Of a stretch of DNA of 64,000 bases, positions 47,656 through 63,610 are shown piece after piece (positions within the stretch are counted from its first letter, which is position 1; every line of letters starts with the position of its first letter). The stretch lies in the NCBI GenBank assembly GCA_963763255.1, contig CAVXNW010000006.1, positions 48,670 through 112,669 of the forward strand. The letters run 5' to 3'. Made by a program: the position numbers and the translations under genes. The DNA is from an uncultured Alphaproteobacteria bacterium. Its GTDB lineage: Bacteria > Pseudomonadota > Alphaproteobacteria > Rhizobiales > Xanthobacteraceae. The notes beneath the pieces are model-generated. The model saw only the letters and a program-made list of their open reading frames with translations, ran no database searches and was not told the DNA's origin.

Positions 47656-47669
47656 TTGATCTGCGTCAA
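47656..47669. promoter_or_regulatory. FixK/FNR-type box TTGATCTGCGTCAA
   Basis: TTGA-N6-TCAA match, 156 bp (centre) upstream of the PhaC-like gene ATG. Confidence 0.55.
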
Positions 47670-47701
47670 ATCATGCCTGCGGCCGAAAGGGTGCGCGGTG
47701 A

Positions 47702-47715
47702 TTGATGCAGGTCAA
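47702..47715. promoter_or_regulatory. FixK/FNR-type box TTGATGCAGGTCAA
   Basis: TTGA-N6-TCAA match, 110 bp (centre) upstream of the PhaC-like gene ATG and 46 bp from the preceding box. Confidence 0.6.
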
Positions 47716-47818
47716 GGCAAACTGGTGCGCGCGGCATGACATTTCGTATCCAGTCCGACGATTGCAGGCTCTCCGGCAGGACGGCGACAAGCGTCGGCAA
47801 ACAACTCGCGCCATATTC

Positions 47819-48958
47819 ATGTACGATCCAGCGGCACGCCCGTTTCCCAATCTCACCTTCTTGTGGCCGGCCTTTGCGGCCGCGGCGGCAGGTGACATAG
47901 CGGGCCTGTTCGCGCGGCAGCTTGCCGACCTGGCGATCGGAGCGGACGGCCGGTCGGCGCGCGAGCCGCCGTGGACCTCGTCGAACAGTATTGCGCTTGA
48001 GCTGAAAACGGTCCGGCTGCGCGATTTCACCGTCGGTGCCCGCGTGCAGCCGCCGACACTGTTGTGCGCGCCTTTTGCCCTGCATGGCGCCGCCGTTACG
48101 GACCTCACGACGGGGCACAGCCTGGTCGCTGCCTTGCAGCAAGCCGGCTTACAGCACCTCCTGGTGACCGACTGGCGCTCCGCCACGAGCGAAATGCGCT
48201 TTCTTGGCATCGATGATTATCTCGCCGACCTCAACGTCATGGTCGACGCGATTGGCGCGCCGGTTGATCTTATCGGCCTGTGCCAGGGCGGCTGGATGTC
48301 GCTGATCTACGCCGCCCGATTTCCGGGCAAGGTCCGCAAGCTTATCCTCGCCGGCGCACCGGTCGATATCGCCGCCGCTCCGTCTGCCCTTTCAACCCTG
48401 GCCGCAAGCTCTCCGCTGGCAATCTATCGTGATCTTGTGCGGCTCGGCGACGGTCTTCTTCCCGGCAGGAACGTGTTGAAATTCTGGGGATCAGACGCTG
48501 TTGACGCTGAAGATATCAGACGGCTGATGCAAACCGATAAGGCAATCGGGTCACCCGGCTTCGCCCGCCTGCAAGCGGCGTTCGAAACCTGGAATACATT
48601 CACGGTCGACCTCCCCGGGACCTTTTTTCTCGAGTGCGTCGAAAAACTTTACAAGCGCAACGAATTGGCAACCGGCTGTTTTGTCGCTTTGGGGCGACCG
48701 ATCGATCTAACCTCGGTCACGCTCCCGCTATTCCTGCTCGCGGCCCGCGATGATGAGCTGATAGCACCGCAACAACTGTTTGCGGTGGAGCGCCTAGTTG
48801 GGACTTCGGCCCAGGATCTACGCAAAGCCATTGTGCCATGCCGTCACGTCGGATTGTTCATCGGCAAGAGGACGATCGAGGACATCTGGCCGAAAATTGC
48901 GCATTGGCTCCGCGAAGAGCCGGGTGGCCGGCAGGCCGTGCAGCGAGGGAGTGAGTGA
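47819..48958 (+). CDS. PHA synthase-like alpha/beta hydrolase (short, class III/IV PhaC-like)
   Basis: Start ATG at 47819 (MYDPAARPF..). The lipase-box variant has Cys (GLCQGG = G-x-C-x-G-G). Downstream Asp (ARDDELIAP) and His (CRHVGLFIG) blocks parallel ERDHVAP and GHNAGIV in the class I PhaC at 50153-52039. Confidence 0.65.
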   Translation: MYDPAARPFPNLTFLWPAFAAAAAGDIAGLFARQLADLAIGADGRSAREPPWTSSNSIALELKTVRLRDFTVGARVQPPTLLCAPFALHGAAVTDLTTGHSLVAALQQAGLQHLLVTDWRSATSEMRFLGIDDYLADLNVMVDAIGAPVDLIGLCQGGWMSLIYAARFPGKVRKLILAGAPVDIAAAPSALSTLAASSPLAIYRDLVRLGDGLLPGRNVLKFWGSDAVDAEDIRRLMQTDKAIGSPGFARLQAAFETWNTFTVDLPGTFFLECVEKLYKRNELATGCFVALGRPIDLTSVTLPLFLLAARDDELIAPQQLFAVERLVGTSAQDLRKAIVPCRHVGLFIGKRTIEDIWPKIAHWLREEPGGRQAVQRGSE

Positions 48959-48961
48959 GCC

Positions 48962-49789
48962 ATGGCATTCAAGACAATCATGGTTTACGTCGATTTCGAC
49001 GAGCAATCCGAGAAACGTATCGGCGCCGCAGCGGAGCTGGCGAATTGATTCGATGCGGTACTCATCGGCGTGGCCGGCTGGCCGCTACGCCGATCGGGCT
49101 CCCTGGCCCATTCGGACGTGGAATATCCATCCACTGAAGAACATCTGCAGGCCAAAGTTGCCGAAGAACTGGAGCGGCTGGGCGAAATGTTCCGGCGCTG
49201 CGCGCAACCCGCGCGGCGCAGCATAGAATGGCGCTCGTCGTCTCATTTCCCAAATGAGGTGATCGCCGCGCAGGCGCGAGCGGCGGACCTCGTTATTATC
49301 GGGCGCGATCCGCTGCATGACGACAATTTCCATACGTACGATCCGGGGGCCATCATCTTGGCGTGCGGCCGGCCGGTACTGGTGTTACCGAACGGCGTTA
49401 ATCGGGTGCATGCATCACGCGTTCTGATCGCCTGGAAGGATAGCCGTGAGGCGCGTCGGGCAGTCTCCGATGCGCTGCCGTTCCTGAGCGCGGCGGAAGC
49501 CGTCATCGTCGCGGCGGTCGGGCCTTCAGAGATCGAACTCGCCACGCGCGAACAGATCGATGACGTCGCCGATTTCCTGCAGCGTCATGGGGTGACAATC
49601 GACGCAAAGGTAGCGATTCCTACACGCGAGGCCGATGCGCATGTTCTGCTAAGGCTTGTCGACGAACGAAAAGCCGATTTGATCGTCGCCGGCGCCTATG
49701 GACGTAGCCGGTTGAGCGAATGGATATTCGGCGGCGTGACTCGCTCGCTCCTTACACGCAGCAAAGTCCCTATCCTGTTCGCAAATTGA
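48962..49789 (+). pseudogene. tandem-domain universal stress protein (UspA family) interrupted by an in-frame TGA at 49046-49048
   Basis: ATG at 48962 encodes MAFKTIMVYVDFDEQSEKRIGAAAELAN, then TGA. The same frame continues FDAVLIGVAGWPL... into the 239-aa ORF 49070-49789 (..LIAWKDSREA.., ..DLIVAGAYGRSRLSEWIFGGVT..). Total length is about 275 codons, typical of tandem Usp. Confidence 0.65.
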
Positions 49790-49992
49790 TTGCGTGAGTA
49801 TTATTTCCAGGGGGCGGTTCGATCTGCAGGCGTGATAATCTGTGAAATAGTCAGTCGATCCCCACCCGTGCAATGACGGCGAGCTTGATCGAACGCAACG
49901 CTAGCGCCGCGCTCGCGCGGCCTTCCTGAAACACGCCGGATCGTTGGTCGCGGTCGCTTCGGTGTGACAATTCATGACAAGGCGTGGCCGTC

Positions 49993-50152: not shown

Positions 50153-52039
50153 TCACTGCATCAGCACATAGGTGCCCGGCGCCTCGGCAAGCGGGGGATA
50201 GCCAGCCTGGGCCGCACCCATCGGCGGGATGCCGGTGGGCGGCCCTGAGCGTTCGCTGAGCCAAGCGACCCATTCCGGCCACCACGACCCATCCTGGCGC
50301 CGCGCCTCGGCCAGATATCGCTCCGGATCAAGGTAGTGCTGGTTCGCTTGTTTGGTTCTGACGCGGAAATTGCGTCCAGGATGACCGAGCTCCGACACAA
50401 TGCCGGCATTGTGCCCGCCGCTGGTGAGCAGATAAGTCACATCGGTATCGAACTGAAGATTGATCTTATAGGTCGATCGCCAGGGCGCGACATGATCGCG
50501 CTCGGTACCAACGGCGAAGACCGGCACGCCAATGTCCTTGAGCGCGATCGGCCTGCCTCCCGCCATGCAACGGCCTTCCGCCAACTCGTTATCGAGGAAC
50601 AGCCGGCGCAGATATTCAGAGTGCATGCGATAGGGCATGCGAGTTGCATCCGCGTTCCAGGCCATCAGGTCGGTCATCGGTTCACGCTCACCGAGCAGAT
50701 AATCGTGCACCCCACGCGACCAGACGAGGTCGTTCGAGCGCAGCATTTCGAAGGCGCCGGCCATCTGACGACTGTCGAGGAAGCCTTGCTCCCACATCAT
50801 GTCTTCCAGAAACGCGACTTGGCTTTCGTCAGTGAAGAGCAGCAATTCGCCGGCCTCGGTGAAATCAGTCTGCGCCGCCAATAGTGTGAGCGTCGCGATC
50901 CGATCGTCGCGGTCGCGCGCCATCGCCGCCGCCGCGATCGAGAGCAGCGTGCCGCCGAGGCAATAGCCCACCGCATGCACTTTGCGGTCCGGCACGATCC
51001 GGCCGATAGCGCCAAGCGCGTCCATCACACCGAGCGACCGGTAATCGTCCATGCCGAGATCGCGATCGTCCGGCACGGGATTTTTCCAGGAAATCATGAA
51101 GACCGTGAAGCCTTGTTCGGTCAGGTACTTGACCAGCGAATTGTGCGGCGACAGGTCGAGAATGTAATATTTCATGATCCACGCGGGTACGATGAGGATC
51201 GGTTCCGGTCTCACTTCCCGCGTTACCGGTGCGTATTGGATCAGTTCGATCAGGCGATTGCGGAAAACCACCTTGCCGGGGGTTACCGCGACGTCGTGGC
51301 CGACCTTGAATTGCTCCGTGCCGACCGGCTTCTTGCCTCCAAAGGCGCGCTCGCAATCCGCAAAGACGTTCTGCGCGCCGCGCACAAGATTGGATCCGCC
51401 GGCGCTCATCGTGCGCCACAGAATTTCCGGATTGGTCAGCATAAAATTCGAGGGTGCGGCTACATCGAGAAGCTGTCGCGTGGCGAACTCGACCATGTCT
51501 TCGTGATGTTTTGATACGCCGCGCAAGCCGGTCGTGGCGTTATACCACCATTGCTGCTGCAACAGAAAACTCTGATAGATGAAGTTGAAGGGCCATTGCC
51601 GCCATTTTTCATCGCGGAAGCGGTGATCCTGCGGTAGCGGGTCGATGCAGGGTTCCGCATTCGGGCCCTCGACGGCGTACCGAAGAGCGTAATTCGCGAA
51701 GCGCAACGCTTTGCGGAACGCTTTGTCTGCTAGTTGCATACGTTTGCCCGGCGCGACGGCAAGATGCGTCGCCCAATCCCAGTAGGCTTGGGTGAGTGCG
51801 GCCGGTGACAAACCTCCGGTCATGCGTGCAATTGCGGCGTGGAGCGTGCGGTCGGTGACATCGGCGAGCGCAGTGACACTATAGGAATCGCGGTCGTCCG
51901 GTTCGACCGCCGGGCCGACGATCGCTGCCTCCGCGTCCGACCGTTCGGGGGCAATCGGAGCAACGGCCGAAATTTCGGCAGGTGCAATTGCGCTGTTCGT
52001 CATCGCTATTTGCCGCGGAAACCGCGCAGGCGCTGTCAT
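50153..52039 (-). CDS. phaC: class I poly(3-hydroxyalkanoate) synthase
   Basis: 628 aa with lipase-box GYCLGG and conserved blocks (WNADATRMP, ERDHVAP, GGHNAGIV). N-terminal domain typical of class I PhaC. Confidence 0.9.
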   Translation of the reverse strand: MTAPARFPRQIAMTNSAIAPAEISAVAPIAPERSDAEAAIVGPAVEPDDRDSYSVTALADVTDRTLHAAIARMTGGLSPAALTQAYWDWATHLAVAPGKRMQLADKAFRKALRFANYALRYAVEGPNAEPCIDPLPQDHRFRDEKWRQWPFNFIYQSFLLQQQWWYNATTGLRGVSKHHEDMVEFATRQLLDVAAPSNFMLTNPEILWRTMSAGGSNLVRGAQNVFADCERAFGGKKPVGTEQFKVGHDVAVTPGKVVFRNRLIELIQYAPVTREVRPEPILIVPAWIMKYYILDLSPHNSLVKYLTEQGFTVFMISWKNPVPDDRDLGMDDYRSLGVMDALGAIGRIVPDRKVHAVGYCLGGTLLSIAAAAMARDRDDRIATLTLLAAQTDFTEAGELLLFTDESQVAFLEDMMWEQGFLDSRQMAGAFEMLRSNDLVWSRGVHDYLLGEREPMTDLMAWNADATRMPYRMHSEYLRRLFLDNELAEGRCMAGGRPIALKDIGVPVFAVGTERDHVAPWRSTYKINLQFDTDVTYLLTSGGHNAGIVSELGHPGRNFRVRTKQANQHYLDPERYLAEARRQDGSWWPEWVAWLSERSGPPTGIPPMGAAQAGYPPLAEAPGTYVLMQ

Positions 52040-52217
52040 GGACTAACTCGGCATGATTACAAAGATACGACGTTTCGCGACGAACCTCCCCCCGTTTAAA
52101 AAAGCCCCGGCCAAAAATAAGGCCGGGGCCAAATGCTGGCATCCGATTCCCCTGGGAGGCCGGGAAATTGGACGCAATACCAGCACAGCAAGACTAGCCA
52201 ACCATGCGGGAATTGCT

Positions 52218-52232: not shown

Positions 52233-52982
52233 TCAATGAATCGCGCGTCCAGTCGAGTCCTCGGCTCTGGCTTCATCTTCCGCAGACGGAATGGCGATCC
52301 CAGACATCGGCTCGACCCAAACGAGGTGGTCGTGAACCTCTTTGACGCCTGCGACGTTCTCCGCCGCGACGATGAGCGCCTTGCGTTGACGCTCATCCGT
52401 GATGATGCCGGATAATTCCGCAGCGCCGTTGTGGACTGCCACGTTGACTTTCGGCGCCCAATTCACGTCGGCAAACGCCGCCAGGATCCGGTCGCGAATC
52501 GTCCCGTCATCGGCCGCGGGGCCGTGGGTATAGCGGGCGGTCTCGGTCAGGGCGTCCACGAGATTGGCGCGGCTGACAATTCCTACGATACGGCTATTGC
52601 GCAGCACCGGCAGCCGCTTGACGTGCCGGCGCTCCATCAGTTCGACCACGGTCTCCAGCGAGTTGTCCTCACTGACCGTAACGGGATCGGGCGTCATCAC
52701 TTCCTCGACCGTTCGGCCGGTCGTATGCACGTATTCAGCCGCAAGGCGCCCCGGCCCGAGCAAGAATTCAAGCCATCTAGGCCGCTGTCGTTGCGTTCCT
52801 ATTTCACCACGGCGCAGAAAATCGCCTTCGGTCACAATCCCGACCAGCGCGCCGGCGGCGTCCACTACCGGCAGACCGCTGACTTTATTCAGCAGCATCA
52901 GCTGTGCCGCATCGAGCACCGATTGATCGCCGCGAACCGAAATCACGTTGCGCGTCATCACATCGCGCACTTGCATCATCAT
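52233..52982 (-). CDS. CBS-pair plus BON domain protein
   Basis: 249 aa. Two CBS motifs (VRDVMTRNVISV.., VEEVMTPDPVTV..) are followed by a BON-like C-terminus (VAVHNGAAELSGII...AAENVAGVKEVHDHL). Confidence 0.85.
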   Translation of the reverse strand: MMMQVRDVMTRNVISVRGDQSVLDAAQLMLLNKVSGLPVVDAAGALVGIVTEGDFLRRGEIGTQRQRPRWLEFLLGPGRLAAEYVHTTGRTVEEVMTPDPVTVSEDNSLETVVELMERRHVKRLPVLRNSRIVGIVSRANLVDALTETARYTHGPAADDGTIRDRILAAFADVNWAPKVNVAVHNGAAELSGIITDERQRKALIVAAENVAGVKEVHDHLVWVEPMSGIAIPSAEDEARAEDSTGRAIH

Positions 52983-53721: not shown

Positions 53722-53939
53722 GCGACGTGCCTCCGAGGGGTTTCGAAGGCATTGGTAGTCCGGTGCCTCAGGGTAAAAAATTCAGATGTTGCCCCTAAGT
53801 AATATCCCGGAGGCTCACTAAGGCAGCATCGACGCCTCACCGCCCATTCGAAAGAAGCCAGACCCGCAACACATTGTGGCATGCCAGCATTTTACAATTT
53901 CGCGCGAAAATTCACCGCCACGGATGGCGATGCTTCAGG

Positions 53940-54027: not shown

Positions 54028-54591
54028 ATGGATCTAGGGGAAGCGATCTACTCGCGCCGCGCCACGCGCGATTTCACGGCGGAGCCGGTCGACGAAAAGT
54101 CAGTGCGCGCACTGATCGACGCGGCTGTGCAGGCGCCAAGCGCGGTCAATGTCCAGCCCTGGTCGTTTTGCGTTATTCGCGACAAAAGCCTGCTTGGCAG
54201 CATATCGCGCGAATCCAAAGCTTACATGGTCCGAAATTCGCCGATCGGGCTTGTCTCGCATCATTTCAGTGAGATCCTGAATGATGAAAGCTTCGATATC
54301 TTCTATCATGCGCCCGTCCTCATCGTGATTTGCAGTACGTCGGAAATCCCGTGGGCTGTTGAAGATTGCGCGCTGGCAGCGGAAAATCTCATGCTGGCGG
54401 CGCGAGCCGCGGGCCTTGGCAGCTGCTGGATCGGCTTCGCTCAAGGCTTTCTCGGCACGCCGGATGGCAAAGCGATGATGAAGGTCCCGGCGGCCTATAA
54501 GCCCATCGCCCCCATCATTGTCGGTCACCCGAAAGCCTGGCCTGCGCCTGTTCCGCGGAAGGAACCGGAAATCCGCTGGATCGATGCGTGA
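54028..54591 (+). CDS. nitroreductase family protein
   Basis: ATG at 54028 after GGAGAAGGA. MDLGEAIYSRRATRDFT.., APSAVNVQPW and AAENLMLAARA.GLGSCWIG blocks. Confidence 0.85.
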   Translation: MDLGEAIYSRRATRDFTAEPVDEKSVRALIDAAVQAPSAVNVQPWSFCVIRDKSLLGSISRESKAYMVRNSPIGLVSHHFSEILNDESFDIFYHAPVLIVICSTSEIPWAVEDCALAAENLMLAARAAGLGSCWIGFAQGFLGTPDGKAMMKVPAAYKPIAPIIVGHPKAWPAPVPRKEPEIRWIDA

Positions 54592-54691: not shown

Positions 54692-55141
54692 ATGAACAAA
54701 ATCGCCATTCCTCATGACGCTCTGGTGTTCGTCGGTGACGGGCAAAAGGCGCTCTTCCTCCGCAATGCCGGAGACGAGAAATTTCCCAATCTGAAGATTG
54801 AGCGGGTGTTCAGCGAAAACAATCCGCCCACACGCGATCAAGGTACCGATCGCCCGGGTCGCACCATGGAGAGCGCCGGCACGCATCGCCACAGCAGCAT
54901 GGAGCCGACTGACTGGCACGAGATCGAGAAGGGACGTTTCGCCGATCGCGTGGCGGCCGAGCTGGAGAAGCTGGTGCGTGACCAAAACATGCGGAAGATC
55001 GTCGTGGTCGCACCGCCACGCACGCTTGCCGAGTTACGGCATGTATTTCACGCCGACGTCAAGAAACGCATCATCGCCGAGATCGATAAGGATTTGACCA
55101 GGCATCCGGTTTCGGAGATCGAGAAACACATCCTGGCGTGA
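54692..55141 (+). CDS. host attachment protein family (release-factor-like fold) protein
   Basis: 149 aa. Pattern ..ALVFVGDGQKALFLRN.. and ..FA..VA..L......IVVVAPPRTLAELR... as in Host_attach-family proteins (assignment from memory). Confidence 0.7.
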   Translation: MNKIAIPHDALVFVGDGQKALFLRNAGDEKFPNLKIERVFSENNPPTRDQGTDRPGRTMESAGTHRHSSMEPTDWHEIEKGRFADRVAAELEKLVRDQNMRKIVVVAPPRTLAELRHVFHADVKKRIIAEIDKDLTRHPVSEIEKHILA

Positions 55142-55171: not shown

Positions 55172-55381
55172 TTGCCGTACGCCAGCAATGAAAGCTTGCC
55201 GTCCTCGGTTCGCGCGCATCTGCCCGACCATGCGCAGGACATTTATCGGGAGGCCTTCAATCACGCTTGGGCTGCGCATGCCGGTGAGGGCCGTCAGGAA
55301 CAGGCCGCCCATCGCATCGCTTGGGCCGCGGTGAAGCGATCCTATGTCAAGCTCGGCAACGATTGGGTTGTGCGCGGCTAG
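55172..55381 (+). CDS. ChaB-family protein
   Basis: 69 aa with TTG start after GAGGGGG. MPYASNESLPSSVRAHLPDHAQDIYREAFNHAW...AHRIAWAAVKRSY is the ChaB signature. Confidence 0.75.
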   Translation: MPYASNESLPSSVRAHLPDHAQDIYREAFNHAWAAHAGEGRQEQAAHRIAWAAVKRSYVKLGNDWVVRG

Positions 55382-55414: not shown

Positions 55415-56443
55415 CTATCCCGCGGCCTTGACGATCGCTCGCCGCACCAACGCTTCAAACAGCGGTAGCTTGTAGGCATTCTTACTGAGCGGCGTGGCGC
55501 CATCGAGCGCCGCATGTGCGGCTCGGGCGGCGGTCGTCGGATCAATCCGCTGTCCGACCAGCGCAGCTTCGGCTTTCCTGGCCCGGTGCGGCACCGGCGC
55601 GGCCGCGCCGAGAACGATGGCGGCGCGCTGGCAAACGCCGCTCGTGTCAACGTCGATCAGAGCAGCGACATCGGCAAGGGGCCAATCGAACGAATCTTTT
55701 TCCCCCTGCTTGATGTGGGCCATGCGCACGCTCTGCGACAGTCGCGGCAGATGGATTGCGGTGAGAATCTCGTGCGGTTCGAGCCCATTCTCGCGTTGCA
55801 TATCCTGCTCGACGGGGACGAAGAAGTCTTCCAGCAAGAGGCGGCGCGCGCCCCCCGCCGTGCCGGTGATCTCGACCGTCGCGCCGATCGCGACCAGTGC
55901 GGTTGCCGCAGTCGAAGGATGCACGATGGCGCAGGGCATATTGTTGAAAATCGCGTGGTACTGGTTCTCGCCGTGGACGGCAAAGCAGTGACCGCCGCCC
56001 TTGCGCAGACAGCGAAACGCGTGCGAGCGCAGATACCAGCAGCGCGGCCGCTGCAGAAGGTTGCCGCCCAAGGTCGCGACGTTGCGGATCTGCGGACTTG
56101 CCGAGCTAGCAAGCGCGTCAGCGAGTGCGGGGTAGCGCTGCCGTAAGATCGGATGCGCGGAGAGCGATGCCAATGTGACCATAGACCCGATGCGCAGTCC
56201 GCCGTCCTCCTCTTCGCCAACGGTGTCAAGGGTCGGCACCTCGCGCAGGTTTATCAGCCTGGGCGGCGCCAGCAGGCCCTCTTTGATCAGATCAAGCAGA
56301 TCGATCCCGCCGGCTTTGATGACGGATACGTCGCTCTGACCTGCAAGCTCGGGCGGCACAGCCATGGCGTGGGCGACAGTCGCGGATGCCGCCGTGGCGG
56401 CTGCGGCAATCGTTCTTGGCGTGGCGAGGTCGAAGCGGTGCAT
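55415..56443 (-). CDS. xanthine dehydrogenase family FAD-binding (medium) subunit
   Basis: 342 aa with FAD_binding_5-like blocks (VIKAGGIDLLDLIKEG, IRNVATLGGNL). Confidence 0.85.
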   Translation of the reverse strand: MHRFDLATPRTIAAAATAASATVAHAMAVPPELAGQSDVSVIKAGGIDLLDLIKEGLLAPPRLINLREVPTLDTVGEEEDGGLRIGSMVTLASLSAHPILRQRYPALADALASSASPQIRNVATLGGNLLQRPRCWYLRSHAFRCLRKGGGHCFAVHGENQYHAIFNNMPCAIVHPSTAATALVAIGATVEITGTAGGARRLLLEDFFVPVEQDMQRENGLEPHEILTAIHLPRLSQSVRMAHIKQGEKDSFDWPLADVAALIDVDTSGVCQRAAIVLGAAAPVPHRARKAEAALVGQRIDPTTAARAAHAALDGATPLSKNAYKLPLFEALVRRAIVKAAG

Positions 56444-56448
56444 GGCCG

Positions 56449-58794
56449 TCAGCTCCTTCGCGCCACTTTGCCCAGCGCCGCAAGTACAGTCGCTGGAGTC
56501 ATCGGCAGGCTGCGCAGGCGCACGCCGATGGCATTATAGACGGCGTTGGCAATTGCCGGTGCGGTAGCGATATTGGCCGGCTCGGCGACGCCATAGGCAT
56601 CGGTCGCGCTTTGGCCTTGGTAATTCTCCAACACCACGACGTCGATCTGCGGCGTCTCACGCACGCCGGCGAGCTTGTATTGTTCCAGATCGGGATTGAC
56701 CATGCGCCCCGTCGCCTGATCAAGGATGCGCTCTTCAAGCAGCGCATAGGAAACGCCCATGAGCACGCCGCCCTGCACCTGACTTTCGATTTGCCTTGGA
56801 TTCATCGGCCGGCCGCAATCTTGCACGGCGACCACGCGCTCGACGCGGATAATGCCAGTCTCAGTATCAACCGCGACTTGCGCGAATTGCACGCCGCCCA
56901 AGTCCTGCTGCGCCAGCGCGGCGTCCGCTCCGGCGCGCCGTCGAAATCCCCCATAGTCGTCGCTGCGTGAAACAATCTCTGCGACACGATCAGTGCGCAA
57001 ATGACGGGCTGCATCCTTGAAGGTTACGAAGCGCGAGGGATCGCCGTGGACGAGGATTTTGCCTTCGCGCGCGATCAAATCGTCCGGGGAAGCATTCAGC
57101 AAAAGCGATGCCTCCCGGAAAAGCTGTCGCTGGACGCGCCACGCGGCAATACGCGCCGGCGGCGTGACCGACGCTGTGGTGCGGCTGCCATAAGACGGCC
57201 CGCCAGGCGGAAATTCGGTATCACCGATACGAACGGTGATCTGGTCGGGACGAAGACCAAATGCCTCGGCGACCGTCTGCGCCAAAACAGTCGTGATGCC
57301 CGTACCGATATCCTGCACGCTGGAGAGTACCTCCACCGAGCCGTCGCGCATCACCCGCACTTCGCAAGCGGCGTTGGTCTGGACATTGGCGCCCCAAAGC
57401 GATTGCGCGACACCGAGGCCGCGCCTGATCGGGCCAGCATCCGCACCGGGCCCGTGCCGGCGCGACCAGCCGATCCGTTCGGCGCCGATCCGCCGTTCCT
57501 CGCGCCGGACCGGGCTCGGGTCAATTCGGTCGCGCAATGCCAGCGGATCGATGGCAAGCCTTTCCGCCAGTTCGTCGACGGTCTGCTCCAAGCCAAATGC
57601 TCCGGGCGTATTTCCCGGCCCTCGCATCGCGCAGCCCGGCCCTGCATTGATGAAAACGTCATGCTGGGCGCCTTCGAAATTGGGACAAGAATAAAGCGCC
57701 TCGGCATTGTTGCCGACTCCTGCGCCGACCGTGATGCCAGCGGTACCGTAGCTCACGAGCGATATCGCGGTGAGCGAACCGTCGCGCTTGGCGCCAACGC
57801 GCAAGCGCTGCCAAGTGCCGGGCCGATTGCCGGCATCCATCTGCTCCTCCTCGCGCTCAAGGAAAAGGCGCACTGGCGCCTTGGCCTGGCGCGACAGCGC
57901 GATGGCAAAATGGCCGTAATTGCCGAGCGACGACTTTGAACCAAATCCGCCGCCCATCGCGTCGACGATGACCCGGACGCGGTTGAGCGGCAAATCGAAT
58001 ACCTCGGCGATTTCGTCGCGAACACCCGCAGTAAACTGCGTCGACATGTAAACGGTGAGCCCGTCGGCTCGCCAATCAGCAACGATCGCGTGCGGCTCAA
58101 TGCAGCAATGGGTGTGGACGCTCGTGCTGTACTCGCCTTCGACGACCACGTCGGATTCGCCAAACCCCTTGGTCGGATCCCCGCGCCTCGCGATTGAAGG
58201 GCCGCGAACATTGCCATTGAGCGGCAGGTTCACCGCCGCCGGAAAGCCCGAAGGGTGTCCCGGAGGCGATGTCGCATGATCGTGAACCAAAGGGGCGGTA
58301 GACTCGCGCGCCTTGTCCATGTCGGCGACGAACGGCAGCGACTCATAGTCGACGCGAATAAGGCGCAACGCCTCTTCGGCGGCCGGCAGCGAAATAGCTG
58401 CCACGGCGACGACAGGCGCGCCGACATAGCGCAATTTTGCGCTTCTCGGATCAGCGGGATCGGCCACCGTCAGAACCGCACGCACGCCGGGATGACGGAC
58501 AGCCGCCGAGACATCGATTGAGCGCACAACGGCATGAGGGAGAGGCGAGCGTAACACGCGTCCGTGCAGCATGCCCGGAAGCGAAATGTCGACAGTGAAG
58601 CGGACGGCACCAGTGACTTTGGCGCGGCCGTTGGGCCGCGGAAAGGACTTGCCGATGACGCTAAGCTCGCTGTTCGGCGGCAGTGGCGGCGGCTCATCGG
58701 CCGGAATCTGACGCTCGACCGTGCCTAAGCCGACGCTGGCGATGCCGAAGGGAAAGCTTGCTGCCCGCAGCATTTCTGGCTTCGCCACGTTCAT
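56449..58794 (-). CDS. xanthine dehydrogenase / aldehyde oxidoreductase family molybdopterin-binding large subunit
   Basis: Start ATG at 58794 overlaps the upstream stop (ATGA). Blocks GRAKVTGAVRFTVD, GGGFGSK and AYGVAEPA. Confidence 0.9.
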   Translation of the reverse strand: MNVAKPEMLRAASFPFGIASVGLGTVERQIPADEPPPLPPNSELSVIGKSFPRPNGRAKVTGAVRFTVDISLPGMLHGRVLRSPLPHAVVRSIDVSAAVRHPGVRAVLTVADPADPRSAKLRYVGAPVVAVAAISLPAAEEALRLIRVDYESLPFVADMDKARESTAPLVHDHATSPPGHPSGFPAAVNLPLNGNVRGPSIARRGDPTKGFGESDVVVEGEYSTSVHTHCCIEPHAIVADWRADGLTVYMSTQFTAGVRDEIAEVFDLPLNRVRVIVDAMGGGFGSKSSLGNYGHFAIALSRQAKAPVRLFLEREEEQMDAGNRPGTWQRLRVGAKRDGSLTAISLVSYGTAGITVGAGVGNNAEALYSCPNFEGAQHDVFINAGPGCAMRGPGNTPGAFGLEQTVDELAERLAIDPLALRDRIDPSPVRREERRIGAERIGWSRRHGPGADAGPIRRGLGVAQSLWGANVQTNAACEVRVMRDGSVEVLSSVQDIGTGITTVLAQTVAEAFGLRPDQITVRIGDTEFPPGGPSYGSRTTASVTPPARIAAWRVQRQLFREASLLLNASPDDLIAREGKILVHGDPSRFVTFKDAARHLRTDRVAEIVSRSDDYGGFRRRAGADAALAQQDLGGVQFAQVAVDTETGIIRVERVVAVQDCGRPMNPRQIESQVQGGVLMGVSYALLEERILDQATGRMVNPDLEQYKLAGVRETPQIDVVVLENYQGQSATDAYGVAEPANIATAPAIANAVYNAIGVRLRSLPMTPATVLAALGKVARRS

Positions 58795-59399
58795 CCCCCA
58801 TGCGCTCTGGCCGCCGCGAGCGTTGCGGCGATGACATGCGGATAAGTGCCGCAACGGCAATAATGCCCGCTGATCGCGGCACGGACCTCGTCGGCGTTCG
58901 GTTCCGGGTTACGCTTCAACAAGGCCGCACAGCTCATGATCATGCCGGGCGTGCAAAATCCACATTGCAGCGCATCGTGATCGATGAAAGCTTGCTGCAC
59001 TGGATGCAGTGTTTCACCCTGCGCGAGGCCTTCGATCGTCGTAACCTCTCGTGTGCCGACATCAACGGCGAGCATCATGCAGGCGCAGATCGGCAGGCCA
59101 TCAAGCCATACGGTACAGGCCGAGCATGCGCCGCGATTGCAGGCGATCTTGGTGCCAGTCAGCCCCAATGGCCCACGCAACACTTCAGCTAGTGTTGCGC
59201 TCGCTGCGACATGCGCCGCCCGCAGCACGCCATTAACATTCAAATGAATGGTATCCGGCTGCGCACCTGCCGACGGCGCGTCGCCTGCACTGATTTCCGC
59301 TTGTGCCGTCATCGTTTGCGCTGTGTTGATCACGGTCGCTCCGGCGGTCGACACCGCGGAGCCGCGAAGAAACGACCGGCGCGACAGGTCACTCACCAC
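58791..59399 (-). CDS. [2Fe-2S]-binding small subunit with twin-arginine (Tat) signal, PaoA-like
   Basis: Probable GTG start near 59399 after GGAG gives (M)VSDLSRRSFLRGSAVSTAGA. Two 2Fe-2S motifs are present: CNRGACSACTV...C and CGFCTPGM...C.C. Confidence 0.8.
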   Translation of the reverse strand: MVSDLSRRSFLRGSAVSTAGATVINTAQTMTAQAEISAGDAPSAGAQPDTIHLNVNGVLRAAHVAASATLAEVLRGPLGLTGTKIACNRGACSACTVWLDGLPICACMMLAVDVGTREVTTIEGLAQGETLHPVQQAFIDHDALQCGFCTPGMIMSCAALLKRNPEPNADEVRAAISGHYCRCGTYPHVIAATLAAARAHGG

Positions 59400-59473: not shown

Positions 59474-59849
59474 GCCAGCCGAGGCGAAACGTCGAATGTC
59501 TTCCGGGCGATCCGATCTTCTGACATTGGATCAAAGCGGGCGGCCACCGCCGCCAGCATAAGAATTGCGGCCGCTTATGGAGGTGAGCGAATGCACGTTC
59601 CGTTGTCTCTGCGATCAAGCAAAGCGCCCAGGCCCGCGATTGTGCGCCGCGCAACAAAAACCCGTCGCAATGTGACGGACAAGCAACAAGCTGAGCTCCG
59701 CCGCCACATCGCGGGGAATCGACGGCCGTTTGATCTTCGTCAAAGCATGCTCTCCCTCAACACGAAAGACTGCAATCAGCCGGGCTTGGGTCTCGGAGTT
59801 GCGCATGCATGGTCCATTCGGAGAAATGCCAACGCAAAGGAGGGAAACG

Positions 59850-60002
59850 ATGCGCGCGCTCGCGTGGAATGGAAATGGCCTCACGACGAAGCTCCTTTGG
59901 GGCGCGATCGCTCTCCTTGGCGCAGTTTCGCTGGCCATCGTTGCACTCAGCCGCGGCGAAGCGGTCAATGCTGCATGGCTGGTCATAGCATCGGTGTGCA
60001 TC
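59850..60002 (+). pseudogene. cstA: carbon starvation protein CstA remnant: first ~51 codons with intact RBS
   Basis: AAGGAGGGA RBS then [51 protein letters not shown]. This matches the conserved CstA N-terminus (..ALNRGE.INA.W.V.ASVCIY..). Similarity stops abruptly at 60002. Confidence 0.7.
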
Positions 60003-60004
60003 TC

Positions 60005-60115
60005 GGCGCCGGCAATGACGACGCCGGCGAGAATCCACAGCGTACCGGGCAGGTAGCCCATTTGCGCGGCCAGCACCGGACCAACCAGCGGTCCCGCACC
60101 TGCTTGCCCAGCAAT
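60005..60115 (-). pseudogene. cstA: inverted internal fragment of cstA (conserved [33 protein letters not shown] block)
   Basis: The minus-strand translation [37 protein letters not shown] is a hallmark CstA block. In intact genes it lies downstream of the N-terminal block on the same strand. Here it is inverted and abuts it. Confidence 0.7.
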
Positions 60116-60189: not shown

Positions 60190-61197
60190 ATGGATTTGAC
60201 GACACGCTACCTGGGTCTTGAACTTAAAAATCCTATCGTAGCTTCGGCTTCGCCGCTCACCGGCAATCTCGACGCTATCCGCAGTCTGGAGGACGCCGGA
60301 GCCGCCGCCGTCGTACTGCCCTCGCTATTCGAGGAACGGATCGAGGCGGAAGCGCGCGCGCACGAGATTCTTACCGCGACGGGCCTGAAAAATACCCCCG
60401 AAGCCCACGGCTGTACGGCCGATTCTGAGGGACCCGCGCCTGAAGAATACCTCAACCTCATCAGACGAGCCGTTGCCGCCGTCGACATTCCCGTCATTGC
60501 CAGCCTCAACGGCACAACAGACGAAGGCTGGACAGGCTACGCCGAGCTGATCGAGCAAGCCGGAGCGGCAGCGCTCGAACTCAATGTCTATTTGATTCCG
60601 ACCGATTTGTCTTTGACCGGGGGCGAGGTCGAAGAGATTCATCTTGAAATTCTGCGCCAGGTCCGGCGCACGGTCGCACTGCCACTTGCGATCAAACTTA
60701 GCCCGTATTTCAGCGCGATCGGGCAGATCGCTGCGCAATTAGCTACCGCGGGAGCGGATGCTTTGGTGCTGTTCAACCGTTTCTATCAACCGGACATTGA
60801 TTTGACGCAGCTTCGGCTTCGCAATGATTTGCAGTTGAGCCACTCGAACGAAATCGGACTGCCGCTCTTGTGGATCGGCCTCCTGTCCGGGCGCGTCGAA
60901 GCCTCGCTTGCCGCAAGCACCGGCGTTGAGGATTCCGAGCAGGTAATAAAATACCTGCTGGCCGGGGCCGATGCCGTGATGACCACGGCAGCTTTGCTGC
61001 GGCACGGTCCGCGACACATAGAGAAACTTTTGAATGAAACGATGTCGTGGCTGTCAGCACGTGATATTTCGTCACTCGATGAGATTCGCGGATTGCTCAG
61101 CCAGCGCCGCTTCGCCAATCCCGACTCCTTCGGCCGAGCAAGCTATGTAAAGATCTTACGCGATTACGCCGCTCATTATCAGCGCGGAGCTGCGTAG
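60190..61197 (+). CDS. dihydroorotate dehydrogenase-like (class 1 DHOD/DPD TIM-barrel fold) protein lacking the canonical catalytic Cys/Ser motif
   Basis: Start ATG at 60190 (MDLTTRYLGLELKNPIVASASPLT). FMN-barrel blocks are present (IASLNG, LELNV, IKLSP, LFNR, GADAVM). The usual ELN-x-S-C-P-N segment reads ELNVYLIP. Confidence 0.8.
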   Translation: MDLTTRYLGLELKNPIVASASPLTGNLDAIRSLEDAGAAAVVLPSLFEERIEAEARAHEILTATGLKNTPEAHGCTADSEGPAPEEYLNLIRRAVAAVDIPVIASLNGTTDEGWTGYAELIEQAGAAALELNVYLIPTDLSLTGGEVEEIHLEILRQVRRTVALPLAIKLSPYFSAIGQIAAQLATAGADALVLFNRFYQPDIDLTQLRLRNDLQLSHSNEIGLPLLWIGLLSGRVEASLAASTGVEDSEQVIKYLLAGADAVMTTAALLRHGPRHIEKLLNETMSWLSARDISSLDEIRGLLSQRRFANPDSFGRASYVKILRDYAAHYQRGAA

Positions 61198-61283
61198 CCT
61201 GGCTGGTGAACCCGCAGACCTACAGCGATCCGTGTGGACAGTCAGTTGGTCGCGGTCCTGGCGGTAAAATAGGAGGCATGAGA

Positions 61284-61658
61284 ATGCAACGATCCTGGCT
61301 TCTGACGCTTGCAGTGTTGGGCGGCCTCGCTGCAGGCCTCCTGACCCACGCCACGGCGCAAACGCCGTCAGCGGCGCCGGGTGCCGGGCATGGTTTTCTC
61401 ATCGATAAGCATGCGGCGGCCGGGCTCAATTGCGCCGCATGCCACTCCGAAACTCCCCCATCAAAGCAGCCGGATCAAGCGGTGTGTGTCAAGTGTCACG
61501 GCACCAACGCGCAGGTTGCTACTAAGACTGCATCCGACCAGCCCAATCCCCATGCGTCGCATCTCGGCGAAGTTGCGTGCACAAGCTGCCATCACATCCA
61601 TCAGGCTTCGGTGCTTTATTGCACGCAGTGCCATAATTTCGATTTGAAGACTCCCTGA
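61284..61658 (+). CDS. periplasmic tetrahaem cytochrome c (small, cytochrome c3 / flavocytochrome N-domain-like)
   Basis: AGGAGG RBS and Sec signal MQRSWLLTLAVLGGLAAGLLTHATA. Four CxxCH motifs: CAACH, CVKCH, CTSCH, CTQCH. Confidence 0.85.
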   Translation: MQRSWLLTLAVLGGLAAGLLTHATAQTPSAAPGAGHGFLIDKHAAAGLNCAACHSETPPSKQPDQAVCVKCHGTNAQVATKTASDQPNPHASHLGEVACTSCHHIHQASVLYCTQCHNFDLKTP

Positions 61659-61735
61659 AGCATTATCGACCGCGCTGTCATCTAGTGAGAAATTCGCGGC
61701 CATCCCTGGATGACAAGTGCTTTTGATCGACCCGA

Positions 61736-63505
61736 TTAACCGGCACCGCCATCACTCGCGGCATTCTTGCCGGCGATATAGCCCTGACAGGCGGCGCGGG
61801 CGAGGCCATGCTGCGAGAATCCGCCGGCAGATTCGCCACTACAATACAGGCCAGGGATCGCGTCGGCGTTCATATCCATGACCTGGCACTTGCCGTTGAT
61901 GCGCAGTCCGGCGCGCGTGTCGTGCACGACCGGCGTTGCCCAGGCGGCATAGAACGGCGCCTTCGCGATCTTGTGCAGCGGCTTCGGCTTGCCGAAATCC
62001 TCATCGACACCAGAGTCGACGAATGAATTATAGCGCGCCACGGTTTGTTCGAGATTTTCGGACGGCATTGAGACGCGTTGATATTTCATTTTGATTTTCC
62101 CGGCGAGATCACCGAGCGAATTTGCCGAAAAAAAGAAGCCAGCCTCGGTGTCGACGTTCGGAGGGTCCGGATCCCACTTTTCCCGCGTGACCGCGTCGGC
62201 GTCGAAGACTGCCCAGATCGGACCGCCGCCATTGTGGCCGTCTCCGATTCCGGCCAGCGCCGCGTTGATGAAGTTGTTGGGATTGTATTTCTGATTCCTG
62301 GCGTTGAGGTAGCTGCCCTGCTTGTAATCCTTGATCGAGTTGTAATCGTTTGCGGTGAACTGCGGACCGGTCTCGTCATAGAAGCGCTTTCCGATCATGT
62401 TGACGAGAATGACGTCCTGCCAATTGGCGACCGACAGACCCGAGGCGCGCGCCTTGTCGAAAACGGGGCTGCCCGGCATCCACTTCAAATTGACGTAACC
62501 GTACTGGCCGCCGATCGTCCCAGCCTTGGTGAGGTTGGAACCGAATTCGCCGGTCTGATTGTAAAGCCCCCACAGTGAAGCGCCGATCGCCATGCCGGCA
62601 AGTTCACCGCTGGCGTCCTGGTTGGACCACGGCATGCCCGACAAGCCGCAATATTCCTCCGTCAGCCGCGGATCGAACATGCGACGGAAGTTGATGTTTC
62701 CAGTCGAACCGCCGGTCGCGATAATGACGGCCTTGTGGGCGCGGATGTTCAGCGTTTGACCGTCATTTTGCACCGCGATGCCGGTAACGCGCCCGGAAGC
62801 CGGCTGGTCGCGATAGATCGAGGTCATCTTATGTTCGAGCAGAATCTGCACGCCTGCCTTCCTGGCAGCGGCCTCCAGCGGGCGCATCAGCCCATTGCCC
62901 GAAGAGAGGGTCTTCTGAATCATCGGATCGGCCGGCTTGCCGGTCTGCACCATCGGCCAGTTCATGACAGCGCTGTGCACCTCTCGCGGCGCGGAATTGC
63001 CGACCGATGTGCCGCCAAACTGGTCCGGTGTCTTATCGACAAAAACGACACCATGGGCGAGCAGCCATTCAAACGTTGGCGCGCTGTTGTCGGCGAAAGC
63101 GCGAATGATCTCGCGGTCGTTATATCGGTAGTCAGGGAAGCCGTTACCTTCCACCACTGACCAGTCGGTCAAATCGCGGAACAGCAGATCCGGCGAGTCG
63201 TTGATGCCATATTTCTTCTGTACGCTGGTTCCGCCGCCGAGCGGGACATTGCCGCCACTGGTGATGGCGTGACCGCCGATATCCTTTTCGGCTTCGACCA
63301 GAATGACCGTCGCGCCGGCTTCGTGTGCCACGATAGCGGCCGGCAGGCCTGCAGCACCCGAACCGATCACAACGATATCGGCCTCGCGCTGCCACTCTGT
63401 GGGCGTGCGTGGCGCCTGCGCTAAAGCCCTATCGGGCGCTCTGACGGCAAGGCCAGCTGCGATTCCACCGCCGCTGAGCAAAAAGTCACGCCTTTTCAGG
63501 GTCAT
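61736..63505 (-). CDS. Tat-exported FAD-dependent oxidoreductase (fumarate reductase / flavocytochrome c flavin-subunit-like, FAD_binding_2)
   Basis: Start ATG at 63505 gives twin-arginine leader MTLKRRDFLLSGGGIAAGLAVRAPDRALAQA. Dinucleotide fold DIVVIGSGAAGLPAA is present and the C-terminal block is GLYCSGESAGG. No CxxCH in this protein. Confidence 0.85.
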   Translation of the reverse strand: MTLKRRDFLLSGGGIAAGLAVRAPDRALAQAPRTPTEWQREADIVVIGSGAAGLPAAIVAHEAGATVILVEAEKDIGGHAITSGGNVPLGGGTSVQKKYGINDSPDLLFRDLTDWSVVEGNGFPDYRYNDREIIRAFADNSAPTFEWLLAHGVVFVDKTPDQFGGTSVGNSAPREVHSAVMNWPMVQTGKPADPMIQKTLSSGNGLMRPLEAAARKAGVQILLEHKMTSIYRDQPASGRVTGIAVQNDGQTLNIRAHKAVIIATGGSTGNINFRRMFDPRLTEEYCGLSGMPWSNQDASGELAGMAIGASLWGLYNQTGEFGSNLTKAGTIGGQYGYVNLKWMPGSPVFDKARASGLSVANWQDVILVNMIGKRFYDETGPQFTANDYNSIKDYKQGSYLNARNQKYNPNNFINAALAGIGDGHNGGGPIWAVFDADAVTREKWDPDPPNVDTEAGFFFSANSLGDLAGKIKMKYQRVSMPSENLEQTVARYNSFVDSGVDEDFGKPKPLHKIAKAPFYAAWATPVVHDTRAGLRINGKCQVMDMNADAIPGLYCSGESAGGFSQHGLARAACQGYIAGKNAASDGGAG

Positions 63506-63596
63506 ATGGCTCTCCCTTCGGCTACGCTGGCGACGCGAGAGGCGCGCCTGATGGCCTTCGGAAGCGCGTAGTGTGCCGGGCATCAGGTGGGCGGCA

Positions 63597-63610
63597 TTGA
63601 CGAAGATCAA
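63597..63610. promoter_or_regulatory. FixK/FNR-type box TTGACGAAGATCAA in the divergent flavoprotein / NapC-like promoter region
   Basis: TTGA-N6-TCAA match centred about 98 bp from the flavoprotein ATG (minus strand) and about 85 bp from the NapC-like ATG (plus strand). Confidence 0.6.

Follow-up and report, generated by a model that had tools for sequence, protein, structure and literature searches.

The Escherichia coli regulator FNR senses O2 directly by means of an N-terminal [4Fe-4S] cysteine cluster and recognizes the operator TTGAT-N4-ATCAA, with class II activation at position -41.5. The FixK proteins of Caulobacter and Rhodopseudomonas palustris are oxygen-insensitive, are located downstream of FixLJ in the regulatory chain and bind TTGA-N6-TCAA (PMC13327599). 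For FixK2 of Bradyrhizobium diazoefficiens, control by oxidation through C183, its only cysteine, has been established; C183 is positioned next to the DNA and to L195, and the protein which was crystallized is the C183S variant (PMC9104804). This paper will focus on a 64-kb stretch of DNA, here called the window, from an uncultured soil member of the Xanthobacteraceae and relative of Bradyrhizobium, in which a gene for a FixK-class regulator is found among perfect TTGA-N6-TCAA palindromes, here called boxes.

With a box defined as a perfect TTGA-N6-TCAA palindrome, 11 boxes were identified in the window by pattern search, and 11 of 11 also satisfy the tighter pattern TTGAY-N4-RTCAA. In 100 dinucleotide-preserving shuffles of the window, 0.63 boxes were expected per 64 kb, with a maximum of 4. 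In a curated gene map, for which GC content by reading frame, starts chosen with the help of Shine-Dalgarno sequences, and Pfam/NCBIfam matches were combined, all 11 are located in intergenic DNA, which makes up 9,614 bp or 15% of the window and for which a first-order Markov model gives an expectation of 0.11; the 54.5 kb of coding DNA contain none, versus 0.42 expected. Nine of the 11 are found at or past 47 kb, in the final 17 kb. Sites with one mismatch are about as frequent as expected by chance (16 in addition versus ~14 expected) and were therefore set aside, and the published relaxed consensus TTG(A/C)-N6-(T/G)CAA adds a single credible intergenic site, at 49885. A family comparison set of 80 related FixK loci, 1.43 Mb in total and with genes clustered across all loci, contains 290 boxes or 12.9 per 64 kb, and 231 of these 290 are intergenic though 85% of the DNA is coding.

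An earlier note, made from the sequence of the window alone, had reported ten boxes, eight of them in the last 17 kb. All ten are present and the clustering is as it described; an eleventh box at 59730-59743, which brings the cluster to nine, had been overlooked. It had also held that every box is intergenic and that well under one would be expected by chance, and had set the comparison of intergenic with coding density as a test; the figures given above agree with it on each point, so that the box cluster is confirmed and is stronger than originally stated. The core of its reading, FixK/FNR-type boxes around a FixK-type regulator in a low-oxygen regulon island, stands: with a probability of roughly 85%, the 11 palindromes are FixK-class operators, and the DNA from about 47 kb to the end of the window and beyond is a promoter cluster of a low-oxygen regulon.

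For the regulator, the Pfam domains cNMP_binding, HTH_Crp_2 and Crp were all identified above their cutoffs. Among solved structures, FixK2 (4i2o) gives the best match (E value 1.2e-58, 201 bits, versus 90 bits for FNR), and the identity to Bradyrhizobium FixK2 is 50.5%. In the HMMER alignment to 4i2o, which uses native FixK2 numbering, the recognition helix I-E-T-V-S-R aligns with L195-E196-T-V-S-R200 of FixK2, in which L195, E196 and R200 are the residues touching the TTGA half-site. In an alignment of 76 sequences, the window protein and 75 relatives, IETVSR is kept in 74 of the 75 relatives, and the FNR-type cluster C-x2-C-x5-C is absent from all 76. Translation and alignment thus agree with the former description of a regulator which lacks the FNR cysteine cluster and carries the ETVSR helix. 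The best match among 185,579 representative genomes, which do not include the window's species, is only 71% identical; all matches there belong to soil Xanthobacteraceae or Pseudolabrys-type metagenome-assembled genomes, and the exact protein of the window is on record only in one metagenomic run.

The order of genes conserved in the 80 loci is fixJ-fixL divergent from the regulator gene, followed by a gene for a CBS/BON protein and then by ccoNOQP-ccoGHIS. A true fixL flanks the regulator gene in 70 of the 80 loci, with scores of 163 bits for the haem-PAS domain of B. japonicum (1dp6) and 361 bits for a chimeric FixL kinase (4gcz), and a FixJ-like gene is present in 64 of them (230 bits to 5xso). 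The CBS/BON gene is syntenic with fixK in 60-65 loci, and ccoN carries a box in 31 of the 35 loci which have this gene. Since they are flanked by true fixL and fixJ and have a boxed ccoN downstream, the regulators of these relatives are the FixK proteins of a FixLJ-FixK cascade.

Upstream of fixK in the window, a block of ~110 nt (53722-53830) holds a promoter element, a TACCAAT motif and the 5' untranslated region. In 18 aligned fixK upstream regions, the element is almost invariant, CCTCCGGGAtAtCCCTTAGGGnCAttATCTGAATTTTT, with a core that is invariant in 18 of 18, and is followed ~20 nt further on by TACCAAT, then by the Shine-Dalgarno sequence and the ATG. In 78 of 80 loci the core precedes fixK, at a median position of -80 and with or without an adjacent fixL, and it is present only five times elsewhere in the 1.43 Mb; it occurs once in the window. 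In the relatives, the element is located in the divergent region between fixL and fixK. The FixJ site TAAGTAATTTCCCTTA of Sinorhizobium meliloti, a CSNAATWT element near -33 and a CCCTTA motif have been described (PMC4999443). The element of the window partly resembles this site and the CCCTTA and CSNAATWT motifs, a resemblance and nothing closer, and from this partial likeness, together with the position between fixL and fixK, it is probably a site for a FixJ-type response regulator. A sigma-54 promoter upstream of fixK was considered by eye and was dropped, as the GG-N10-GC spacing did not fit. The only two-component system of the window (4546-7649, minus strand) was also considered as FixLJ and was rejected, because the kinase is of the GAF-GAF type and the response regulator gives 230 bits to 1yio versus 144 bits to FixJ. 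Together with 3736-4347 (minus strand), this region forms a row of genes for the GAF-GAF kinase, its FixJ/NarL-family response regulator, a further response regulator with a single domain and an extracytoplasmic function (ECF) sigma factor.

The spacing of the boxes, measured from the box axis to the start codon, was compared with that in relatives, where it peaks sharply at 60-80 bp. In the window, the distances are 58.5, 67.5, 77.5, 81.5, 85.5, 98.5 and 110.5 bp, and 316.5 bp for the box at 30095. The distances given in the earlier note were broadly right after refinement of the starts, except that no credible gene is found downstream of the box at 49993. For 181 box-gene pairs, an A/T-rich hexamer (TATATT) was identified at +29.5 to +34.5 from the axis, which corresponds to -12 to -7 if the axis is placed at -41.5, and about nine boxes of the window show TAnnnT or nAnnnT at this -10 spacing. 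At nosR of B. diazoefficiens, a start mapped by rapid amplification of cDNA ends (RACE) is located 40.5 bp from the axis of the FixK2 box (PMC5582078). Boxes near -41.5 are putative class II sites, for which the geometry is established statistically and from which activation would be expected.

In a Pfam census of 150 proteins encoded behind the boxes of the relatives, CBS plus BON proteins (22), CcoN (20), HSP20 (16) and response regulators (13) were the largest classes; smaller ones are the dicarboxylate/sulfate symporter family, LTXXQ proteins, the ribosome hibernation factor, cold-shock protein, ChaB, Usp, hydrolase and cytochrome bd. This census agrees with the experimentally defined FixK2 regulon of B. 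diazoefficiens, whose boxed members (PMC9104804, Table 2) include usp, a host attachment protein, a nitroreductase, hspC2, resistance-nodulation-division (RND) efflux adaptors, and phaC2 with a divergent CBS-domain gene. FixK2 targets named in the same source are the CBS-domain gene blr6074, the host attachment protein bll4645 and the nitroreductase blr4652, which is FixK2-dependent and carries a box. The nitroreductase and host-attachment/ChaB genes of the window, which had been predicted as targets before, belong to families that match this regulon. In the family comparison set, the nitroreductase orthologue of L025 has boxes at 72.5 and 113.5, ChaB orthologues carry a box in four of six loci, and orthologues of the hydrolase at 47819 have one at 58-96 bp, likewise in four of six loci.

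At closer range, three contigs which carry homologues of the window's exported flavoprotein were compared (L161, L162 and L163). Among these, L162 represents a syntenic island, with identities to the window of 84.7% for FixK, 84.7% for the CBS/BON protein, 87.8% for the Mo subunit and 82.6% for the host-attachment protein. The divergent promoter between napC and the flavoprotein gene contains a perfect box in all three contigs, in which the half-sites are kept and the six inner bases differ. The distance from this box to napC is 84.5-86.5 bp in L161 and L162 (85.5 bp in the window), while in L163 a multihaem/cytochrome b gene replaces napC at 115.5 bp from the box. The box of the host-attachment gene is found at 57.5 bp in L162 versus 58.5 bp in the window, and L162 also has a box upstream of the orthologous 2Fe-2S (Fer2_2) gene. 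Upstream of fixK, a box is present at 225.5 bp in both, with a different divergent gene; here the ~110-nt promoter block is ~95% identical between the window and L162, while the sequence between this block and the box has diverged. Further perfect boxes were identified at 2943, 4761 and 5315 of L161 and at 3308, 4860 and 5300 of L162, upstream of genes for a PSCyt1 cytochrome, a hypothetical protein and an MFP-MacB efflux pair; NarJ is encoded nearby. As these boxes are located past the point which corresponds to the right end of the window, the cluster continues beyond 64000. Box density, promoter geometry, gene content and this comparison at close range are four independent lines which indicate that the boxes are functional sites.

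From homology, promoter geometry and conservation, we infer the following scheme for binding, oxygen dependence and the FixJ step. FixJ and the haem-PAS kinase FixL, encoded outside the window, would turn on fixK when O2 is low, by way of the promoter element at 53780-53809. A FixK dimer, devoid of an Fe-S cluster and of a redox cysteine, would then bind TTGA-N6-TCAA by its IETVSR helix, and boxes centred near -41.5 would serve as class II sites for the activation of RNA polymerase. The likely direct targets are the nitroreductase gene, the host-attachment/ChaB genes, the operon of a molybdenum hydroxylase exported by the twin-arginine translocation (Tat) pathway, and the divergent genes for a Tat flavoprotein and NapC. 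Further likely targets are the genes for a dihydroorotate-dehydrogenase-like (DHODH-like) protein and a cytochrome c3, behind a former cstA promoter, the hydrolase-usp operon and the two genes for secreted His-rich proteins; the small structured RNA with which the fixK-CBS/BON unit ends may be another. The coordinates are collected in Table 1.

Table 1. Boxes, genes and other elements of the window in order of position; distances are counted from the box axis.
Feature	Coordinates	Strand	Details
Box TTGATCCAAATCAA	15625..15638		77.5 bp upstream of secreted His-rich lectin-domain protein; TATCCT at -10 spacing
Secreted His-rich (12.3%) ricin-type lectin-domain protein	15709-16632		
Box TTGATGTGGATCAA	30095..30108		316.5 bp upstream of His-rich protein; TATTTT at -10 spacing
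Secreted His-rich (13.6%) protein	30418-31077		
Box TTGATCTGCGTCAA	47656..47669		Abuts 3' fragment of HSP20 gene
Box TTGATGCAGGTCAA	47702..47715		110.5 bp to hydrolase ATG 47819; GACATT at -10 spacing
PhaC/PhaZ-like alpha/beta-hydrolase	47819-48958	+	Pfam and NCBIfam
Tandem-type usp	48962-49789	+	Pfam and NCBIfam; in-frame TGA at 49046-49048
Relaxed box TTGATCGAACGCAA	49885		108 bp from box 49993, likewise between the convergent gene ends
Box TTGATCTGCATCAA	49993..50006		Between convergent 3' ends of usp and phaC
Class I PhaC-type polyhydroxyalkanoate (PHA) synthase	50153..52039	-	Pfam and NCBIfam; 536.6 bits, below 622.65 cutoff
Conserved structured RNA (candidate)	52092..52184	-	5' hairpin with CCUCCC loop, then GC-rich intrinsic terminator and U-run
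Box TTGATTTGCATCAA	52218..52231		2 nt past CBS/BON stop codon; TAGTCT at -10 spacing
CBS-CBS-BON protein	52233..52982	-	Pfam CBS (two) and BON; 28-nt gap to regulator gene, co-transcribed
FixK-class Crp/Fnr regulator, 236 aa	53011..53721	-	GGAGG Shine-Dalgarno before ATG 53721
fixK-promoter element CGGGATATTACTTAGGGGCAACATCTGAAT	53780..53809	-	Candidate FixJ-type site overlapping -35 region
Box TTGATTTTCGTCAA	53940..53953		81.5 bp to nitroreductase ATG 54028, with TACGCT at -10 spacing toward it; 225.5 bp to fixK ATG
Nitroreductase-family protein	54028..54591	+	Pfam Nitroreductase
Box TTGACGAGGATCAA	54627..54640		58.5 bp upstream of host-attachment gene; TATTCT at -10 spacing
Host_attach/baeRF12 protein	54692-55141	+	Pfam
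ChaB	55172-55381	+	Pfam
Periplasmic Tat molybdenum hydroxylase operon, PaoABC-like	55415..59399	-	Pfam and NCBIfam
FAD (flavin adenine dinucleotide) subunit of the hydroxylase	55415-56443	-	
Mo subunit of the hydroxylase	56449-58860	-	
2Fe-2S subunit of the hydroxylase	58791-59399	-	
Box TTGATCTAGGTCAA	59460..59473		67.5 bp upstream of Tat-signal 2Fe-2S subunit (GTG 59399)
Box TTGATCTTCGTCAA	59730..59743		113.5 bp from cstA remnant ATG 59850
DHODH-like protein	60190-61197	+	NCBIfam PRK07565, 422 bits, above cutoff
Tetrahaem cytochrome c3	61206-61658	+	Pfam Cytochrom_c3_2; four CXXCH motifs
Tat-exported FAD flavoprotein, flavocytochrome c/fumarate-reductase-like family	61736..63505	-	Pfam FAD_binding_2
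Box TTGACGAAGATCAA	63597..63610		Divergent promoter: 98.5 bp to flavoprotein ATG 63505, 85.5 bp to napC ATG 63689
NapC/NirT-type tetrahaem quinol dehydrogenase	63689..64000	+	Pfam Cytochrom_NNT; runs off window end

The descriptions of the Tat molybdoenzyme, the periplasmic flavocytochrome module and the two His-rich secreted proteins given in the earlier note were confirmed. The Tat motif of the molybdenum hydroxylase is SRRSFLRG, and its NCBIfam matches are all below the equivalog cutoffs. The flavoprotein has the Tat signal MTLKRRDFLL and reaches 202 bits with the NCBIfam model flavo_cyto_c, which is below the cutoff; more than 5,000 homologues, up to 90% identical, are present in metagenome-assembled genomes of Xanthobacteraceae. 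NapC of the window and of L162 are 74% identical. Two PHA synthases had been proposed, of which one is a class I PhaC-type enzyme; the other, the hydrolase at 47819, is only PhaC/PhaZ-like and stays far below every curated NCBIfam cutoff. The box at 47702 likely serves the hydrolase-usp operon, to which usp is assigned because its ATG at 48962 starts 4 nt after the hydrolase stop codon. The place of usp in the regulon, as had been suggested, is hence that of the second gene of this operon, without a box of its own and with an in-frame TGA at codon 29. Homology to the N-termini of Usp proteins runs on across this stop, which may have arisen by nonsense mutation (probably CGA to TGA) or by an error in the assembly, or may be a case of recoding.

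It had been assumed that every box serves an intact gene; three boxes adjoin remnants or no gene. An HSP20 remnant at 47553-47642 (minus strand) comprises the last 30 codons, 70% identical to HSP20 of relatives, with an in-frame stop. HSP20 genes carry a box in 20 of 27 relatives, and the box at 47656 is probably the orphaned promoter box of the decayed HSP20 gene rather than a second site for the hydrolase. Between this fragment and the start of an RND adaptor gene, ~740 bp (46814-47552) contain no convincing gene.

The second case is a wreck of cstA at 59850..60115, in which codons 1-51 in forward orientation (59850-60002, plus strand) abut inverted codons 100-136 (60115-60005, minus strand). 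By tblastn, the two remnants are 88% and 92% identical to the intact CstA of L163, and Pfam CstA matches the minus-strand open reading frame of the wreck, which is an inversion/deletion scar downstream of the box at 59730. In L163, a box is located 121.5 bp before an intact cstA, which heads an operon ending in a cytochrome c3 gene. The box at 59730, once the cstA promoter, probably now serves the genes for the DHODH-like protein and cytochrome c3. The boxes at 59730 and 63597 share one 14-mer sequence but point in opposite directions, within a 26-nt inverted repeat (59721-59746 and 63594-63619; 81% complementary) which brackets the module of DHODH-like, cytochrome c3 and flavoprotein genes; recombination or inversion between the two operator sites is possible.

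For the third, the box at 49993, TATAT at -10 spacing on the plus strand and an AAGGAG-N6-ATG opening a 29-codon open reading frame at 50082 (82.5 bp) were identified downstream, with no conservation of either found among 80 loci. Likewise, no homologue was found in 80 loci for this and two other small open reading frames, of 85 aa (47161-47418) and 92 aa (46833-47111); the 85-aa frame, the only one of them that was scanned, gave no Pfam match. Two or three boxes are thus likely left over from decayed genes, HSP20 and cstA, or orphan, and this suggests that regulon islands decay and strand operator sites beside gene remnants. At the boundaries of the island, no tRNA gene, integrase or flanking direct repeat was seen in the window. 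The DNA from ~38000 to 64000 has a lower GC content than the left part (~0.59-0.61 versus 0.62-0.65), and at third codon positions the values are 0.65-0.77 versus 0.75-0.88.

The two remaining boxes are outliers to the left of the cluster, each upstream of a gene for a secreted His-rich protein. For the box at 30095, TATTTT at class II spacing and the gap at 30109-30417 imply either a leader of ~275 nt or an unrecognized small gene or RNA. Elsewhere in the left part, a gene at 35372-37204 (minus strand) encodes a product of 610 aa with no Pfam match, and contains about six tandem repeats of 150 nt (50 aa) with 69-80% identity at 35585-36422.

Between the box at 52218 and phaC, a conserved RNA element of 93 nt was identified, which folds at -48.8 kcal/mol (z = -4.75); 0 of 200 shuffles were as stable. 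The same element is present in L014 (3816-3908), between the CBS/BON gene and phaC, with three compensatory pairs. Covariance models, built from two sequences and then rebuilt from 18, found it in ~30 of the 80 FixK loci at 37-78 bits, ten of these loci being outside the training set. Nearly all copies are located directly 3' of the fixK stop codon (~10650-10790, plus strand, in the loci) and have the form GCCGAAC-N-(U/C)CUCCC(U/C)GA-N-GUUCGGC followed by a GC-rich terminator. In the alignment of 18 sequences, 98% of the cells are paired and 12 of 23 pairs are changed on both sides, values which are favoured by the fit of the alignment to the model; 0 of 500 shuffles gave pair counts as good, and slid controls were 23-50% paired. 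No Rfam family reached its gathering threshold for the window and six loci; the best sub-threshold scores, anti-hemB (22-27 bits versus 49.5) and mmgR (16.9 versus 41), reflect the generic shape of a hairpin plus terminator. The element was not found in L162, the closest relative, and is therefore variable between lineages. Copies adjacent to fixK have no box upstream, while in the window the distance between the box axis and the first base of the element is 40.5 nt (~43.5 nt in L069), and the -41.5 rule would put the start predicted for the box at 52218 at ~52183.

Small RNAs of proteobacteria, some of them derived from 3' untranslated regions, present a C-rich anti-Shine-Dalgarno loop which is followed by an intrinsic terminator. 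The element found here has the same hairpin-terminator design and likewise closes a protein-coding unit at the 3' end, in some loci behind a putative promoter of its own; membership in one of the small RNA families described in Rfam is unsupported, as none reaches the threshold. By its sequence, it is a candidate for a small RNA or for an element that ends the fixK unit on the 3' side. That it represents an anti-Shine-Dalgarno RNA of ~75-95 nt from the 3' end of fixK, activated by FixK in addition in the window and in L069, and thereby an undescribed post-transcriptional arm of the circuit, is offered as a tentative proposal; if so, FixK would also silence mRNAs via their ribosome-binding sites.

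It had been thought that the box at 52218 drives phaC, in which case the hairpin and terminator could be a leader or attenuator, or the mere terminator of the fixK-CBS/BON unit with no separate RNA. This explanation is unlikely. In its favour, FixK2 of B. diazoefficiens directly targets phaC2, which has a box at -81 (PMC9104804), and the element, always at the 3' end of the fixK unit, is therefore at least its terminator. However, the box is 185.5 bp from the phaC ATG, with a strong intrinsic terminator between them (10-bp stem, nine GC pairs, T6 run), and the axis is at promoter distance (40.5 nt) from where the RNA element begins; the 5' hairpin with its invariant CCUCCC-type loop moreover shows compensatory changes which a bare terminator would not need. 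In L162, the ~55 nt before the phaC ATG (52040-52095) are conserved, yet neither box nor RNA element is present there, and a perfect box within 700 nt was found for only 10 of 70 phaC orthologues. The latter count comes from a metagenome scan of 80 loci with identities of at most 75%, in which most 'hydrolase' matches were to PhaC's own domain and which was of little use for footprinting. From the terminator, the upstream region shared with the boxless L162 and the 10 of 70 orthologues, it was concluded that phaC is probably transcribed from a separate promoter within the conserved ~55 nt, and that the box at 52218 probably does not drive it.

For the operators as a whole, several points weigh against the assignment to the local FixK. 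The boxes at 47656, 49993 and 59730 have no intact adjacent gene, the terminator separates the box at 52218 from phaC, and neither fixLJ nor ccoNOQP is encoded within the 64-kb window. The regulator scores 248 bits with the curated NCBIfam equivalog for FixK (Caulobacter), below its cutoff of 300 bits, though this is still its best model, and the assignment of the FixJ site draws only on position and on a partial motif resemblance. As its closest fixLJ-linked relatives are only ~71% identical, the regulator may be a paralogue. This bears on a somewhat doubtful alternative, in which the boxes are real but are read mainly by a paralogue encoded elsewhere, either a fixLJ-linked FixK or a protein of the FnrN/AadR/NnrR type, with the local regulator being second-tier or redundant like Bradyrhizobium FixK1. 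Cascades from FixK2 to FixK1 are documented (PMC5582078), and some genomes or loci have two or three copies (two in L009; one metagenome-assembled genome gives L028, L034 and L077). The IETVSR helix is common to all copies, and since paralogues with the same helix are common, the sequence does not tell which protein reads the boxes. On the other side, fixK of the window keeps the FixJ-type promoter element of first-tier fixK genes and not a box at class II distance, and the arrangement of regulator plus island is conserved in L162 at ~85% identity. The paralogue and the local FixK are not mutually exclusive as readers of the boxes.

An explanation which hardly deserves credence is that the palindromes are a non-regulatory by-product of AT-richer intergenic DNA, or a dispersed repeat resembling repetitive extragenic palindromes (REP) or miniature inverted-repeat transposable elements (MITE). 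Intergenic DNA is indeed slightly lower in GC than coding DNA (0.59 versus 0.63), and the pair at 59730 and 63597 is part of an inverted repeat; but this pair is the only repeat family to contain boxes, the flanks of the boxes being mutually unrelated, and the composition-matched intergenic model already gave 0.11 versus the 11 observed. The drift of inner bases between kept half-sites in orthologous promoters and the fixed spacing to start codons and -10 signal also speak against it. It is very improbable, too, that the regulator itself senses oxygen or redox state by a cysteine after the recognition helix, which the earlier note had compared with Cys183. The window cysteine (ALECSA) is close to the DNA-binding helix, and for C183 of FixK2 oxidation control is established. 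However, FixK2 position 183, at the start of the helix-turn-helix (LPM-C-RRD, or LPM-S-RRD in the crystal), corresponds to a native Ser of the window protein and to Ser in 74 of 75 relatives; the window cysteine aligns with T207 and is found in 3% of the relatives, and 33 of 75 have no cysteine at all. The parallel was rejected on these grounds, and by its sequence the lineage of this regulator is without the C183 redox switch. The Cys183 switch of Bradyrhizobium FixK2 is thus not a general property of FixK.

With FixK-class operators as the preferred reading, the microaerobic FixLJ-FixK circuit is extended from model rhizobia to abundant uncultured soil Xanthobacteraceae, for which a defined candidate motif for the FixJ site and fixK promoter is now available. 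The predicted low-oxygen outputs comprise periplasmic redox modules, namely the Tat flavoprotein together with its NapC-type quinol dehydrogenase, the tetrahaem cytochrome c3 and the Tat molybdenum hydroxylase, as well as stress proteins and secreted His-rich proteins. A candidate FixK-linked small RNA emerges in addition, and current understanding is not overturned.

Among the known systems, E. coli FNR has the Crp/Fnr fold and the E--SR helix in common with the window regulator, and also the operator TTGAT-N4-ATCAA and, as a prediction for the window, class II activation at -41.5; unlike FNR, the window regulator has no cysteine cluster, and the 90 bits to FNR compare with 201 bits to FixK2. 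For Caulobacter FixK, which provides the best NCBIfam model, the neighbourhood and target set are different, and the window regulator is not its equivalog, given the score below the cutoff. The closest system is the FixLJ-FixK2(-FixK1) cascade of B. diazoefficiens USDA 110. In contrast to USDA 110, the regulator of the window has no Cys183 switch (Ser lineage-wide), fixK is not located beside fixLJ, no fixNOQP is present in the window, and phaC is probably not driven by a box. As far as the available part of the USDA 110 regulon goes, the Tat molybdenum hydroxylase, the Tat flavoprotein with NapC, the DHODH-like/cytochrome c3 pair and the His-rich secreted proteins are predicted targets of the window only. 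In common with USDA 110 are the class and fold of the regulator, the L/I-E-T-V-S-R helix, the TTGA-N6-TCAA operator and, as predicted for the window, the geometry of the promoters, in which transcription begins ~40.5-41.5 nt from the axis. The same part of the regulon shares with the window the target families usp, host attachment, nitroreductase, CBS-domain protein, HSP20, the phaC neighbourhood and efflux adaptors, and has its targets likewise clustered, at bll4634-blr4655 and bll6061-blr6074. The FixK-type control circuit is well known, and it is here extended to uncultured Xanthobacteraceae.

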